From Candidatus Latescibacterota bacterium (GTDB taxonomy: Bacteria; Latescibacterota; UBA2968): a stretch of 64,000 bases of DNA. Below, piece after piece: positions 1-18,838 of the stretch (the first letter of the stretch is position 1; each line of letters begins with the position of its first letter). The stretch spans positions 1,280,001 through 1,344,000 of the forward strand of contig OZ242311.1 of the NCBI GenBank assembly GCA_965207885.1. The letters run 5' to 3'. The position numbers were made by a program, and so were the translations under genes. The notes under the pieces were generated by a model. That model worked only from the letters and a program-made list of their open reading frames with translations, had not been told where the DNA came from and did not search any database.

Positions 1-906
1 GCGGATATGCTCAATCATTGCACCATAGGTTTTGCCCGCATAAACGGGGTCCAGCAACAACCCTTCGGTTTGCGCGGCCAATAATACGGCCTCTTGCGCC
101 CCGGGCGTCAGTACACCATACGCCGGTCCCGCGTATTTGCCATAACTCTCAAAATCATCTGCCGTAAAACTCAGATCCAAATCCAGAATTTTACACACCT
201 CATTTGCCACCTCGGCGAGTTGCACATTCTTTTTGGCATCATCCTGTGGACTTGGACTTATGCCAATAATCCGCACATCAACACCCAGTGCTCTTGCCCC
301 AACGACAAGCCCGGTATGCGTATGCACACCCGCACACACATAGATGGCATCGGGTATCACATCCATTGCCTGCACCTGCTCCCACAATTCCAAAAACCCA
401 TCCACATAAGACACGCTGCGATAATAATACCCATCCGAACTCGTATTATAGACCCTGTGTCCATCGGTCTCTAACTTTTCAATGACGGCTACCTTCTCCT
501 GCTCGCTCTCAATCAAATGCACCTCTGCGCCAAACAGATGCGTGAGCAACAAATTGCCATTCACGGGATCTGCATGGTCATCCTTGCGCCCCACCATCAC
601 CGCCTTCAGACCCAGCCTCGCCGCAACCGCTGCGGTCAACCGCGACTGATTCGACTGCGACGCCGCGCCGTGAAGCAACACATCATATCCTTCATCCACA
701 GCGGGTGCTACGGAATATTCAAACTCGCGCACCTTATTCCCCCCAAACGCCAGCCCCGTCTGATCCTCGCGCTTGACCAGAATGCGCGGTCCGCCCAGCT
801 TTGCCGCCAACCTCGGGCAATCCATCAACGGCGTGGGCAAATCGGCAAGCGACAATCGGCTGCACGTCCCCAACGCCTCTCGAACCTCTCGAATCGAATA
901 GCTCAA
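1..906 (-). CDS. D-cysteine desulfhydrase/ACC deaminase family PLP enzyme (3' end runs off window)
   Basis: Not in ORF track. Manual translation gives LPTPL..KREDQTGLAFGGNKVRK, QSNQSRLTAA, GNLLL and EGLLLDPVYAGK. TTG start 8 nt after GAGGAG. Confidence 0.85.
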   Translation of the reverse strand, partial: MSYSIREVREALGTCSRLSLADLPTPLMDCPRLAAKLGGPRILVKREDQTGLAFGGNKVREFEYSVAPAVDEGYDVLLHGAASQSNQSRLTAAVAARLGLKAVMVGRKDDHADPVNGNLLLTHLFGAEVHLIESEQEKVAVIEKLETDGHRVYNTSSDGYYYRSVSYVDGFLELWEQVQAMDVIPDAIYVCAGVHTHTGLVVGARALGVDVRIIGISPSPQDDAKKNVQLAEVANEVCKILDLDLSFTADDFESYGKYAGPAYGVLTPGAQEAVLLAAQTEGLLLDPVYAGKTYGAMIEHIR

Positions 907-10461: not shown

Positions 10462-10926
10462 CTATTTCAAAATATCCAAATCCAAAATTTTCTGTACATC
10501 GGCCTTCACTTGTGCGGGCACGCGAAACCGATAGCTCTTTCGTTGAGAAATGAGTTCCAAATCCCGCTCGGTACGCCACACATATCTCGAAAAACGCTGC
10601 CAGGGCATATAGCGCATACCCATCATCAATCCGCGCGCACTCATGGTCACGCGAATGGTAGCATACGCGATATAAAAAAATTCGAGAGAAAGCAAAAAAC
10701 CGAATAATTGCGGCACAAATCCCACGCCATCTGAGATCGCGGCTCCCCGAAACAGCACAATACCCCCCGTCACAATCAAAAGCACATCCCATCGCTTCTG
10801 CAAAAAAACCACCACAGGCTCTTGTGCATTGGACACATGACGTCGCAATCGCCAATACGCCACAATAGACGCGCCCAATAAAATGGGAGCGAGAATCAAC
10901 ACGATTTGTATAAGTGTCAAAGGCAT
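10462..10926 (-). CDS. Hypothetical membrane protein (about 3 TM segments plus a small beta-rich domain)
   Basis: Tightly packed in the operon, with hydrophobic segments. Confidence 0.6.
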   Translation of the reverse strand: MPLTLIQIVLILAPILLGASIVAYWRLRRHVSNAQEPVVVFLQKRWDVLLIVTGGIVLFRGAAISDGVGFVPQLFGFLLSLEFFYIAYATIRVTMSARGLMMGMRYMPWQRFSRYVWRTERDLELISQRKSYRFRVPAQVKADVQKILDLDILK

Positions 10927-10927
10927 G

Positions 10928-11689
10928 TTACGATTTCGACGCCAGATAAATGGTTGCAATCCCAAAGCTCAACCGAACCGCCTGTATATCGGCAAATCCC
11001 GCATCGAATAACCGCCCGCAAAAATCGGCACCTTCGGGAAAATGCATCACAGATTCATACAAATAGCGGTAGGCATTCGGGTCGCGGGAGATCATGTGTC
11101 CAATACGAGGCAAAATACGCTGAAAATAAAAATTGTAAAGGCCGCGGAACACAGGGGTTCGCGGCCTTGAAAACTCCAGCACAGCCACGCGCCCACCCAC
11201 CTTGAGCACGCGGCACATCTCGCTCAGGGCCGTTTCCAACTCGGCCACGTTGCGAATGCCAAATCCGATTGTCACGCCGTCAAATGTCCCCTCACAAAAG
11301 GGGAGACTCTCCCCATCGCCACACAAAAACGCGACCGGATTTGCTCGCGACTCATTTTTTTTTGTACCCTCACGCAACATCGGCACCGAAGGATCGACGC
11401 CGATCACCTGAATATCGCCAGCGCGCTTGCCGCATTCAAACCCCAAATCGCCCGTGCCCGTAGCCAGGTCCAAAATTCGCCAGTTCGGCCCAGGTTGCAA
11501 TCGGTCAATCGTCTTTTTTCGCCACAAAATATCAATGCCCAGGCTCAACAGGTGGTTGAGCAAATCGTATCTGCGGGCAATCCCGTCAAACATCTGCCGC
11601 ACAAAAGCGCGCTTGGCTTCTGGTTTGAGCAACACATCGCGCGCAATACCCGCAGGGGCTTTAGGGCTATCCCTGTGCTCACCTCTCAT
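10928..11689 (-). CDS. menG: Demethylmenaquinone/ubiquinone C-methyltransferase
   Basis: MFDGIARRYDLLNHLLSLG, LDLATGTGD, FGIRNV, RVLKVGG and AYRYLYES. Confidence 0.92.
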   Translation of the reverse strand: MRGEHRDSPKAPAGIARDVLLKPEAKRAFVRQMFDGIARRYDLLNHLLSLGIDILWRKKTIDRLQPGPNWRILDLATGTGDLGFECGKRAGDIQVIGVDPSVPMLREGTKKNESRANPVAFLCGDGESLPFCEGTFDGVTIGFGIRNVAELETALSEMCRVLKVGGRVAVLEFSRPRTPVFRGLYNFYFQRILPRIGHMISRDPNAYRYLYESVMHFPEGADFCGRLFDAGFADIQAVRLSFGIATIYLASKS

Positions 11690-12557
11690 TTTTTGTGCCG
11701 ACCCGTTTGACAACGACATTTTTCATCACATCGGTCGGTGGCTCAACACCCGTCCAGATCGCAAAAGACCGCGCCCCTTGAAAGACCAGCATATCCAGCC
11801 CTCCAAAAGCAGACGCACCAACCGATTGAAACGCGCGCATCAACTGCGTTTCCAGTGGATTGAACACCGTATCGTAGAGCACCAGATCCGGATGGACAGC
11901 GCGCACATCGTCAAGAGGCGAGGCATTGACCTCGGGATACATCCCCAGCGAAGTGGTATTCACAACCACACCCGCATCGGCAAACGCCCTGCATTGCGCA
12001 TCGACATCCAGCGCACCCACATCCATTTTTGTGCCCGTTATTCTTTCCATATCCACTGCCAGAGCCTCGGCTCGCTCGACCGTGCGATTCAAAATCGACA
12101 CCCGCTGCACCCCATCTTGCGTCCCCAGCGCATACGTCACAGCGCGGGCAGCCCCACCAGCACCAAGCACCACGCAATGCGCGGGAAATGCTTCAATCCC
12201 CGCAATATCGCGCAATGCCGTCAAGACGCCATAGACATCCGTATTGTATCCGACCAGCTCATCGTCTTCACGCGAAATGGTATTAACCGCACCCACAGCC
12301 AGCGCTTCTTCTGAAATGCGATCCAGATGTTCCATCACCGCCAGCTTGTGCGGAATAGTCACATTTAACCCGCGAATATTCAGTCCGCGCAACCCCTTCA
12401 TCGCCTCGCCCACGCGGTCGGGCAACACGTGAAAAGCCACATAACAATAATCCACATCTAATGCGGCGATTGCGGCATTGTGCATATCGGGAGAAAACGA
12501 ATGAGCCACCGGGTCGCCAATAACGCCCAGCACCTGACTTGTTGCGCGAATATTCAT
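11679..12557 (-). CDS. aroE: Shikimate dehydrogenase
   Basis: GDPVAHSFSP, NVTIPHK, GAVNT, NTDVYG, GAGGAA and MLVFQG. Confidence 0.95.
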   Translation of the reverse strand: MNIRATSQVLGVIGDPVAHSFSPDMHNAAIAALDVDYCYVAFHVLPDRVGEAMKGLRGLNIRGLNVTIPHKLAVMEHLDRISEEALAVGAVNTISREDDELVGYNTDVYGVLTALRDIAGIEAFPAHCVVLGAGGAARAVTYALGTQDGVQRVSILNRTVERAEALAVDMERITGTKMDVGALDVDAQCRAFADAGVVVNTTSLGMYPEVNASPLDDVRAVHPDLVLYDTVFNPLETQLMRAFQSVGASAFGGLDMLVFQGARSFAIWTGVEPPTDVMKNVVVKRVGTKNER

Positions 12558-12712
12558 CAAGACCTTCGACTGCCATCCAGCAAATCATTTACAAACTCGT
12601 CAGCAATATCAAAACTTTCCTTCCACGAGCAGTTGTATGTATAGCGTATAAATGCCACACCGCCCAGGATCATCAAAATCGCAAATAGCGCGAGCTTAAA
12701 AAGTATCTTCAT
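12557..12712 (-). CDS. Small 51-aa single-pass membrane protein MKILFKLALFAILMILGGVAFIRYTYNCSWKESFDIADEFVNDLLDGSRRS
   Basis: Below ORF-track cutoff. GAGGTG RBS, ATGA overlap with the upstream gene stop and TGATG overlap with the aroE start. Confidence 0.75.
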   Translation of the reverse strand: MKILFKLALFAILMILGGVAFIRYTYNCSWKESFDIADEFVNDLLDGSRRS

Positions 12713-13368
12713 ATTTTCACCTCTTTTGGTTGAACAACAGTAGATAAACAGGCAAATAACCCGGCGAAATCACGACACATATCACCCGTATTTGACACCC
12801 GGGTTTCGCCCTCGGCTACCAATCCCGCCAGAGTAAAGGTCAATCCCGTGAGGGCATCGCCGCCAGCATCGACCTCTATACCCTCAAGGCGCACAGGTCC
12901 CTGCACCACCAGACCATCGGGCATTTCGCCTGCCTTAGCCCCCATTTGACGCAAATTTTGAATCGTCAGTGATAGGCGGTCAACCTCTCCCTGGCGCAAA
13001 CCCTCTCCATCTCGAATAACCGTTTCGCCCGCGGCTTGCGTGCCCATCACAGCGAGAAAAGGCACTTCACGAATAAATAGATCGGTTTGCTCGCCCCCTA
13101 TACGCGTGCGCCGCAATTCAGACCCCTGGACTTTAATCGTACGCGTCACCTTAGACTTTGATCGCGTCACCTGAATGTCCAATTGTGCATTCAACCGCCG
13201 CAACAAATCCAATGCGCGGCGGGTCTTCCAATCGTCGCCCACGCAGTGAAGGGTTAAATCCGACTGCGATAACATCGCCGCAGCGCCGAGCAAATAAAGC
13301 GTGGTCTCAGGATCCCCTGGAACATCGCACTCACCAATAAGCCCACGCGCTTCCTTTACCTCATACAT
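12709..13368 (-). CDS. Half-size (219 aa) EPSP synthase-like protein, single lobe, catalytic residues degenerate
   Basis: GECDVPGD, GETVIRDGEGLRQGEVDRL, LRQMGA..E.PDGLVVQG and AGLVAEGET match the AroA C-terminal lobe. Confidence 0.8.
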   Translation of the reverse strand: MYEVKEARGLIGECDVPGDPETTLYLLGAAAMLSQSDLTLHCVGDDWKTRRALDLLRRLNAQLDIQVTRSKSKVTRTIKVQGSELRRTRIGGEQTDLFIREVPFLAVMGTQAAGETVIRDGEGLRQGEVDRLSLTIQNLRQMGAKAGEMPDGLVVQGPVRLEGIEVDAGGDALTGLTFTLAGLVAEGETRVSNTGDMCRDFAGLFACLSTVVQPKEVKI

Positions 13369-13378
13369 ACTTACCCCT

Positions 13379-14488
13379 CTAACGCAACCGCACTTGATAA
13401 CCCGCATCTCGCAAAATATCGACAGACCGATCGGCTTCCTCCTGCTGCCCAAACCCCATCCGAATCGTCCCCCCTTCGCCTTCGCGCACCTTCAGGACTT
13501 CAATATCTTCAATATTAATTCCTTCGGCAGATAAACGCGAGGCAACATCGGCAATCACACCGGGTTTGTCTTCCACCACCAGCAAAATTTCGTGAAGCGG
13601 ATGCAAAAACCCCTTGGAATCTCTGGGAATCTCTCCGCGAATGCGATTCGCATAGTCAAAATCTTCTGATAGTGCCTCTCGATCCACCTTCTCTCGTATC
13701 GCCACAAGCGCGTCGAGATACGCATTGATCATCTCTCGAATAGGACCGGCATTGGTCTGACAAATATCTCGCCACATCGCAAACGGACTGGAGGCAATGC
13801 GCGTCAAGTCGCGGAACCCACCCGCCGCCATTTGCAGGGGAAGGCCATCGGCCTCATTGAGCCTGCCCACCAATCCCACGAGCGTGGTAGCCATCATCTG
13901 CGGCAAATGGCTCACCGTCGCCGCGACCCGATCATGCGTCTCTGCCTCCATGCGCATAGAACGCGCACCAATGCATTGCACCAGTGCTGCAAGCGCATCC
14001 ACAGTTTCGTCGGAAACACCGCTTGCGGGCGTAAGCACATAAAGCGCGTTTTCAAACAAAAAGGGATCGGCAGCACCCACACCGCTCTTTTCCGACCCCG
14101 CCATGGGATGCCCGCCCACAAAATGCACATCTTCACGCGCAACCTGTTCTGCACATGCGACAATCGCGCCCTTCGTACTGCCCACATCTGTAATAATACA
14201 ACCCGGCGAGGCCGCTTTCACGACCGAGGGTAATTGCTCCAGAATACGCACAATGGGCGAACACAAAAATACCAGATCTGACCGCTTTACGCCATTGTCC
14301 ATCGCGTCGTATCCATAACCACTGTCAATCACATCGAGCGCACGGGCCTCTCGCAGGGTCTCCGCGCGGCTAATACCAATAATCTCGCGCCCAATACCCA
14401 GTCGCTTAAACGCCAGCCCCAGCGACCCGCCAATCAACCCCACACCCACAATGGCAATCGCGGCATCTGTAAACGGAGGATCGTTCAT
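13379..14488 (-). CDS. tyrA: Prephenate/arogenate dehydrogenase with C-terminal ACT domain
   Basis: GVGLIGGS, DVGSTK, GGHPMAGSE, HD..ATVSHLPQ, GFRDLTRIASS and ACT motif DKPGVIA. Confidence 0.93.
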   Translation of the reverse strand: MNDPPFTDAAIAIVGVGLIGGSLGLAFKRLGIGREIIGISRAETLREARALDVIDSGYGYDAMDNGVKRSDLVFLCSPIVRILEQLPSVVKAASPGCIITDVGSTKGAIVACAEQVAREDVHFVGGHPMAGSEKSGVGAADPFLFENALYVLTPASGVSDETVDALAALVQCIGARSMRMEAETHDRVAATVSHLPQMMATTLVGLVGRLNEADGLPLQMAAGGFRDLTRIASSPFAMWRDICQTNAGPIREMINAYLDALVAIREKVDREALSEDFDYANRIRGEIPRDSKGFLHPLHEILLVVEDKPGVIADVASRLSAEGINIEDIEVLKVREGEGGTIRMGFGQQEEADRSVDILRDAGYQVRLR

Positions 14489-17860: not shown

Positions 17861-18838
17861 TTAAATATCCCCAACGACTTGGTCGTAAAATGCCAGATAC
17901 CGATCGCAGTCATCACCATCGAGCAATGCCATTGCCTCGCGGGGATGCTGGTTGTGCTGACCCGTGATATTATAGGGCACCAGAGGTCCCCACATCATTT
18001 CGCGGCGCAACTTGACAAAATGCTCTTCCAGCAACTTATAGACGGGACGGATCTTAAACTTGGGATTCCGCAAAAAACCGAGCAACAATTCCATGGGACA
18101 ATTGCCCGCACCGCGACCCAATCCATCCACAGTAGCATCGACCCGATTGGCCCCCAAAATAATGGCCTCAATAGTATTGGCAAATGCCAGTTGCTGGTTA
18201 TTGTGCGCGTGAATACCCACCTCTTTACCCGAACCCTTGGTCGCCTCCATGTATTTTCGCACCAGCATATCGACCTGCTCGCGATACAGCGCACCGAAAC
18301 TATCCACCACGCAAATCGTGCCCACAGGGGTTTCCATCAGCACCTCTAACGCCTGATCAATCTCGACATCTTGCACCTTCGAAATCGCCATAATATTACA
18401 ACTCGTTTCATACCCCTTCTCGTGGGCATCGAGCAACATTTCGACAGTCTCGGGAATCTGCTCGACATAACACGCCACGCGCACCATATCGACCACGCTC
18501 TCGCTGGATGGCAGAATATCTTCGGCCCAATCGCTCTTGCCCGCATCCGCCATAATTGCGAGTTTCATCCCCGTCGCTTCGGGATCGTGATCCCCGGTAA
18601 TTTTGCGAATATCCTCTTCATCGCTGTGGCGGAACGCACCAAAATCTCTTTTGGGGAACATCTCTTTAGAGTTTCGGTAACCAATTTCCATATAATCAAC
18701 ACCCGCCGCGACACATGTTTCATACACGGCCTTCACAAAATCATCATCAAAATGATGGTCATTCATCAAACCGCCATCGCGGATCGTACAATCGAGTACC
18801 TTGAGTTCCGGACGGTAGGTAATCCAGGGTGCTTTCAT
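17861..18838 (-). CDS. DRE-TIM metallolyase (4-hydroxy-2-oxovalerate aldolase-like catalytic domain)
   Basis: [28 protein letters not shown] and GLGRGAGN. Confidence 0.85.

Follow-up and report, generated by a model that had tools for sequence, protein, structure and literature searches.

A one-lobed, catalytically degenerate AroA derivative in the aromatic operon of a Latescibacterota bacterium, probably retained for a non-catalytic function

The window analysed here (a stretch of 64,000 nucleotides of Latescibacterota DNA, taken at its full length) carries an aromatic operon in which the genes at the locus run in the order tyrA, aroA*, a 51-aa ORF, aroE, ubiE, argS, aroK and aroB. The gene that we call aroA* is an ORF of 219 aa, with its frame intact from ATG to TGA. 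It starts 10 nt after the tyrA stop codon, and its own stop overlaps the ATG of the 51-aa ORF in the sequence ATGA, and an earlier reading made from the sequence only, which had described an intact ORF placed after tyrA and coupled to the next gene, is confirmed. Searches for promoter-like sites (3 versus 2.6 expected) and terminator-like sites (6 versus 3.4 expected, sd 2.0) found nothing beyond chance. The genes and the named parts of aroA* are listed below.

13379..14488, reverse strand: tyrA, prephenate dehydrogenase with an ACT domain, upstream of aroA*; candidate partner
12709..13368, reverse strand: aroA*, 219 aa, one-lobed descendant of class II EPSP synthase, catalytically degenerate
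13306..13326, reverse strand: deletion junction, codons 15-21 of aroA* (DVPGDPE), crossover of two homologous PG motifs of the full-length ancestor
13198..13221, reverse strand: helix with R50, D54 and R57, a signature retained by dead copies
13066..13074, reverse strand: IRE (99-101), once the IDE motif, catalytic Asp lost
13009..13029, reverse strand: GETVIRD strand (114-120), containing E115, conserved among dead copies
12976..12999, reverse strand: LRQGEVDR, once LRVKETDR, Gly in place of Lys, Glu and Arg retained throughout the genus
12913..12936, reverse strand: KAGEMPDG hairpin (145-152), containing G147; KVGE or RVGE in most alleles
12850..12861, reverse strand: GDAL (170-173), once the xDHR motif
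12557..12712, reverse strand: 51-aa ORF, predicted single membrane helix and acidic helix, no family match; candidate partner
11679..12560, reverse strand: aroE, shikimate dehydrogenase, downstream; candidate partner

By sequence, the closest solved relatives of aroA* are class II EPSP synthases (E about 1e-25). Its first 19 residues match the N-terminus of these enzymes, the remainder matches their C-terminal half, and the Pfam PF00275 match covers only positions 225-405 of the 417 in the profile. The altered active-site motifs named in the sequence-only reading are all present, with IRE, RQGEVDR (125-131) and GDAL aligned to IDE, RVKETxR and DHR of the solved enzymes. GDAL is specific to the window allele, as residue 173 varies between L, R and H among 16 genus alleles. 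To audit the substrate site, we used 16 columns comprising K22, S23, R27, R124, Q171, D313, K340, E341, R344, H385, R386 and motif neighbours. These E. coli residue numbers come in part from a docking paper (PMC10305266). By this audit aroA* keeps 2 of the 16 substrate-site residues; the equivalents of K22, R27 and D313 are gone, and the losses within the kept half include those of D313, K340 and H385.

An AlphaFold2 model of the single chain (17-row alignment) is confident, with a pLDDT of 95.0 and a pTM of 0.91. Residues 1-214 of the model align with A. baumannii EPSP synthase 5buf over 214 positions (Z 27.3, rmsd 2.5), and the 5buf chain range matched is 314..751. On this model, aroA* is the N-terminal strand plus the C-terminal half of the enzyme, i.e., the discontinuous, terminus-bearing domain. 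The two-domain inside-out alpha/beta barrel is absent from its 219 aa, in which one domain is matched. The junction sequence follows motif 1 of the full-length relatives as far as VPG and continues from DP as motif 2; an in-register join of the two takes out 209 codons for four of these relatives and 213 for another. The junction match and the 5buf alignment agree with the original claim that the N-terminal strand runs through one VPGD into the second lobe, with the other lobe excised. Two homologous D-x-PG-[ND]-P motifs resemble one another at the junction site in the genus, which suggests that the deletion arose by recombination between internal repeats.

Class II EPSP synthase (AroA; PF00275, TIGR01356; 3rmt, 1rf4, 3roi, 5buf) is the direct ancestor of aroA*, at the same locus and with the same fold of the terminus-bearing domain, as seen from the structural match and from the tree and the synteny with intact class II enzymes. 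The ancestor is two-lobed, whereas aroA* is one-lobed, with few substrate-site residues and a score of 94.3 bits against the TIGR01356 equivalog cut-off of 287.25. We accordingly rejected aroA* as an EPSP synthase proper, since it fails the two-domain barrel, the substrate-site residues and TIGR01356. It was also rejected as a MurA (TIGR01072 42.8 bits versus a cut-off of 392.7; a separate MurA-type gene exists in the genome). Against structures of RtcA and Rcl1 it scores Z 11.0-12.3 (rmsd 3.3-3.7, 187-192 aligned) and shares with them the single three-repeat domain of the EPT/RTPC-like fold. It differs from both in its derivation from AroA by deletion, its 8-10% identity and its aromatic-operon context, and membership of the RtcA/Rcl1 family was rejected given this descent and a Pfam search in which only PF00275 matched and no RTC family did at E<=0.01. 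That one lobe of the enzyme can be a stable unit is seen from E. coli EPSP synthase, whose N-terminal domain has been solved in isolation (PDB 1p89; Z 13.3 to aroA*), but this is an engineered construct and the lobe opposite to that kept in aroA*. In a literature search outside most subscription journals and supplements, we met no account of an AroA that is non-catalytic or single-lobed.

The short gene is also present in every other genome searched from the genus (20/20, and 21/21 in all), at 75-98% identity, with lengths of 214-223 aa and no internal stop. Contigs from three of four runs, each of a different study, span the junction with no joint listed there; those from RNA runs show the presence of the junction, not transcription, level or strand, and the two RNA runs that gave the highest shares carry sponge and coral metatranscriptome labels. 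The presence in all genomes and the spanning contigs rule out a misassembly. Omega was 0.19 over 213 codons, close to but higher than the values of the neighbours tyrA (0.13, from 20 of 21 usable rows), aroE (0.16, partial, 232 codons) and the small ORF (0.14), with the highest pairwise dN/dS at 0.38 among 210 pairs and a Nei-Gojobori ratio of means of 0.139. Misassembly and neutral evolution of the short allele, both named beforehand as possible refutations, are thus contradicted, and the low omega, intact frames and confident fold uphold the view of a folded pseudoenzyme as opposed to a decaying pseudogene. We consider it very probable that aroA* is under selection for a non-catalytic function of some kind.

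The genome itself has three PF00275 matches only, namely aroA*, the MurA-type gene and an unlinked full aroA that scores 423 bits against the TIGR01356 cut-off of 287, and so the complete gene sought after the first reading exists elsewhere. Among relatives, 53 of 60 have a class I-like replacement aroA (near-full-length match at E<=6e-115), with motifs intact in all five copies read. Four of five genomes of f3 (we number families f1, f2 and so on) have another aroA type with RP, SSQ, KECDR, DHR and KSYP motifs and no match to the K22 and NSGT patterns used, which is likely to be active judging from these motifs. In f10 there is a third replacement type (one copy read, 15/16 sites, 428 bits). 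A replacement was found in neither G040 nor G053, and only in pieces in G027, these genomes being 84-95% complete. The unlinked aroA likely supplies the EPSP synthase chemistry in the lineages with dead copies.

To order the events at the locus, we compared it across the phylum. Sister genera and families carry genes of 400-447 aa at the same position. The AroA-like proteins of f5, f6, f7, f9, f11 and f12, six families of other classes of the phylum, keep 15-16 of the 16 sites in 9/9 audited, and in f7 and f9 the intact enzyme stands in the same order tyrA, aroA, small ORF, aroE. Within the window's class (f1-f4), all 29 audited proteins keep 0-4 sites; f10 also has dead full-length copies (0-3 sites in 10/10) with the small ORF next. 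Since full-length copies at the locus are dead and the intact ancestor persists in other classes, catalysis was lost first and the deletion came later, and the single-lobe form, judged from these sequences, is a late trimming of an older pseudoenzyme. This overturns the earlier tie between loss of catalysis and the single-lobe form, as the full-length relatives are equally dead. A full-length aroA here in close relatives had also been named as evidence against a retained pseudoenzyme; it is found as regards length, but not as regards function. In the full-length dead copies, the lobe kept in aroA* is more conserved than the deleted one in 276/276 pairs (0.43 versus 0.31 identity), while in 109 intact enzymes the two are nearly equal (0.47 versus 0.45) and nine intact enzymes of the phylum show a milder tilt in the same direction (0.67 kept versus 0.59 deleted).

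Family f4 has its own one-lobed aroA* in G056 and G058 (227 and 215 aa; L034 5661-6344 and L035 5718-6362), with a junction three residues longer than that of the genus and a predicted fold (pLDDT 93.9). In G056, unrelated ORFs of 69 and 320 aa are inserted between tyrA and aroA*. In a tree of the kept lobe (69 rows, deep branches weak), the single-lobe copies of the genus fall among the dead full-length copies of f1 (99/96 support), and those of f4 are placed outside f1+f2 (100/99 support). A single clade of the five single-lobe rows was rejected (p-AU 0.0105) in a test run after the tree was seen, on a group set by gene length. Going by this tree and test, the same lobe is shown to have been deleted twice, independently, in the genus and in f4. 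The deleted lobe is the only one removable by a single internal deletion that keeps both termini and the coupling, and hence the convergence is partly structural.

Dead copies have a shared signature. Among 56 of them from five lineages, R50 is kept in 56, R/K57 in 56, G147 in 55, D/E151 in 55 and E115 in 53, compared with 2% for R50, 22% for R57 (R only), 4% for G147 and 20% for E115 in the 109 intact enzymes; these counts and the locus counts overstate the independent evidence, as kin are not independent. Among the matches listed for 80 loci of other phyla, R50 occurs at 3, R57 at 24, G147 at 2 (both Zixibacteria) and E115 at 10. The dead-copy lineages that share these fixed residues are only 24-40% identical. 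G147 and E115 are already found in intact enzymes of f5, f7 and f9, so part of the signature predates the loss of catalysis. In f10 the old active-site set R125/D130/D171 is largely gone, and R50/R57/E115/G147 stay. Conservation is highest in the middle repeat (0.50 versus 0.35 and 0.39). From the topology of this fold, the signature positions presumably lie on a peripheral helix and an outer sheet, away from the old cleft; alternatively, the Arg and Glu residues could form an internal salt-bridge network.

Three neighbours are candidate partners. The small ORF (46-51 aa across its family, which is matched in 145/168 genomes of the phylum and often missed by length cut-offs) is the tightest neighbour of aroA*, present in 126 of 131 other genomes of the class; the five misses also have no aroA* match and probably reflect unassembled loci. 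Its N-terminal part is hydrophobic (mean hydropathy 2.5), it contains a conserved acidic helix, and the f10 versions have a Cys-rich tail; it gave no Pfam match above cut-off, no NCBIfam match and one unnamed Atlas cluster at 0.75. In f6 it is separated from aroA, in f13 it adjoins aroE where there is no aroA, and no small-ORF homologue was found at two Zixibacteria loci. A complex prediction of aroA* with this membrane peptide scored 0.00 in two runs, each with 59-row alignments and an uncertain peptide fold, which speaks neither for nor against a complex. At nearly all loci read, the gene immediately upstream is tyrA, and a family of TyrA-AroA fusions is known (NF011381). A dead copy fused to another domain was found in 0 of the 57 longer matches among 8000 candidates scored, all 57 being 414-447 aa, and an Atlas search with aroA* returned EPSP-synthase-type clusters only.

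The above analyses make it somewhat probable, in our judgement, that aroA* is what selection has kept of the class II EPSP synthase originally encoded in the operon: a single lobe, with its substrate site lost and a predicted single-domain fold, that likely binds another product of the same operon as a subunit without enzymatic activity. The proposed course starts from an intact class II aroA at the locus, which other classes of the phylum still have. In the dead-copy lineages, an aroA of another type that is not linked to the operon likely took over the chemistry; the full-length copies at the locus lost their active site while keeping the terminus-bearing lobe better than the other; and the other lobe was then deleted in the genus and, separately, in f4. 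What was preserved would be a binding surface on the outside of the lobe, remote from the former active site, made of R50, D54, R57, E115 and the [KRH]VG[ED] hairpin, for which the membrane peptide, TyrA or AroE is the candidate partner. Weighing against this reading are three relatives in which the gene is broken, deleted or absent upstream of the small ORF (G032, G034 and G083, detailed below), the positions of the small ORF in f6 and f13, and the lack of fusions and of common relaxation in neighbouring proteins. HisZ, which lost a domain and catalysis, offers a model for such a role, with the differences that its fold is unrelated and its partner and activity are proven, while the partner of aroA* is only a candidate. 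Like HisZ, aroA* is a dead enzyme paralog under selection in a biosynthetic operon. HisZ is described as a tRNA-synthetase paralog kept as a regulatory subunit of short-form ATP phosphoribosyltransferase in an amino-acid pathway (PMC9734150), and Rcl1 as working through binding of Bms1 (PMC4914098). By analogy, aroA* most plausibly acts like these enzyme-derived proteins that work by binding. A bolder version, which we regard as speculative and rather doubtful, is that a moonlighting binding face arose on AroA in the ancestor shared by Latescibacterota and allied phyla, that catalysis was afterwards outsourced to at least three different foreign aroA genes, and that the protein was pared twice to the face-bearing lobe, which would tether or regulate an aromatic-pathway complex together with the membrane peptide.

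EPSP synthase is the glyphosate target and a closely studied enzyme, and a dead, half-length copy points to a probable second, non-enzymatic job. As intact, partly degenerate, fully dead and one-lobed forms coexist, they amount to a natural deletion analysis that maps the residues of this second function, and if the interpretation is true, it is a clean natural case of two jobs of one enzyme split after gene replacement. In databases, many dead copies carry the label EPSP synthase, with consequences for pathway reconstruction and for classifying glyphosate sensitivity in this group.

We weighed the signature and the kept fold against other explanations. PyrR is a model of an operon regulator that binds RNA or a small molecule, and by analogy aroA* could be such a regulator of the aromatic operon, acting via its conserved arginines. 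RtcA and Rcl1, both RNA enzymes, are built around a single lobe of three repeats, and R50, 51, 57, 58, 86, 119, 125 and 140 are invariant within the genus and f1/f2. We find this unlikely, as the protein is not basic (26 K+R versus 31 D+E; the charge balance is mixed in four other single-lobe copies) and in f10 most of the arginines are replaced, often by acids (86, 119, 125, 140). More improbable still is a slowly decaying relic, kept mainly for translation into the coupled small ORF and aroE and selected only against misfolding. The stop-start overlap, the graded series from intact to dead, half and gone, and an omega highest of the four genes all fit such a relic, as do the losses in relatives: aroA* is broken by an out-of-frame deletion in G032 (L037 5877-6425) and deleted down to a 40-bp trace in G034 (L169 4650-4840), and G083 perhaps lost it, with small ORF-aroE standing without aroA* upstream (L163 2560-2850). 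However, omega is near that of the working neighbours, residues rare in working enzymes are fixed across divergent lineages, an aroA* match is present in 125 of the class's 131 other genomes, and, as G034 demonstrates, a simple deletion need not end the coupling. The small ORF stays in all three genomes, so neither gene depends on the other. Among ten neighbouring proteins in G032 and G034, no common relaxation was seen apart from a single K-to-R substitution in UbiE. Y24F is present in the small ORF of both genomes, but G023, where aroA* is retained, has it too.

We judge it very unlikely that the lobe has built a new site for catalysis or ligand binding from what is left of the half-site, perhaps in a homodimer that restores a two-lobed cleft. 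E128 and R131 (equivalents of E341 and R344) are kept in 15/16 and 16/16 genus alleles and G127 replaces Lys in most dead copies, but these positions vary in full-length dead relatives and in f3, f4 and f10, R173 is variable inside the genus, and the equivalents of K22, R27 and D313 are gone. The further proposal that aroA* is one half of a split EPSP synthase can practically be discarded, even with a cut exactly at the domain boundary, given that the one-contig, 97% complete genome holds a complete aroA and yielded no separate gene for the other lobe (tblastn best E 0.98 with five closest full-length relatives as queries; a 24-row profile also empty), and that the kept half itself is without D313, K340 and H385 equivalents.

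Returning to the preferred reading of a retained, non-enzymatic remnant, the tendency to degenerate AroA is, from the site audit, one that reaches beyond the window's class. Of 150 representative matches, 36 keep at most 11 of the 16 sites, including a Zixibacteria-named cluster that is partly degenerate and a single protein with a Gemmatimonadota name, and these retain the VGE-x-x-DG hairpin. The partly or fully degenerate AroA of these two lineages (L075 5001-6374; P0225, P0235, P0241, P0271 and P0310) possibly reflects separate losses of catalysis. Going by source names, the homologues of aroA* belong to Candidatus Latescibacterota, one close homologue is labelled Gemmatimonadota, and a scan of GTDB genomes gave, among the matches listed, mostly intact aroA.

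Some minor observations concern the surroundings of these genes. The unlinked aroA (L001 1486-2802; G000:C1:4861059-4862294) lies outside the aromatic operon, has His where Lys is usual before ETDR, and adjoins a 343-aa ORF that by eye resembles a PD-(D/E)xK nuclease. In the window, a 167-aa predicted membrane protein with no Pfam match lies between ubiE and argS (10462-10965, reverse strand) and is present in some f1 and f2 loci only, and an HMGL-like gene (pyruvate carboxyltransferase fold; 17861-18838, reverse strand) sits inside the aromatic cluster, between tyrS and trpB.
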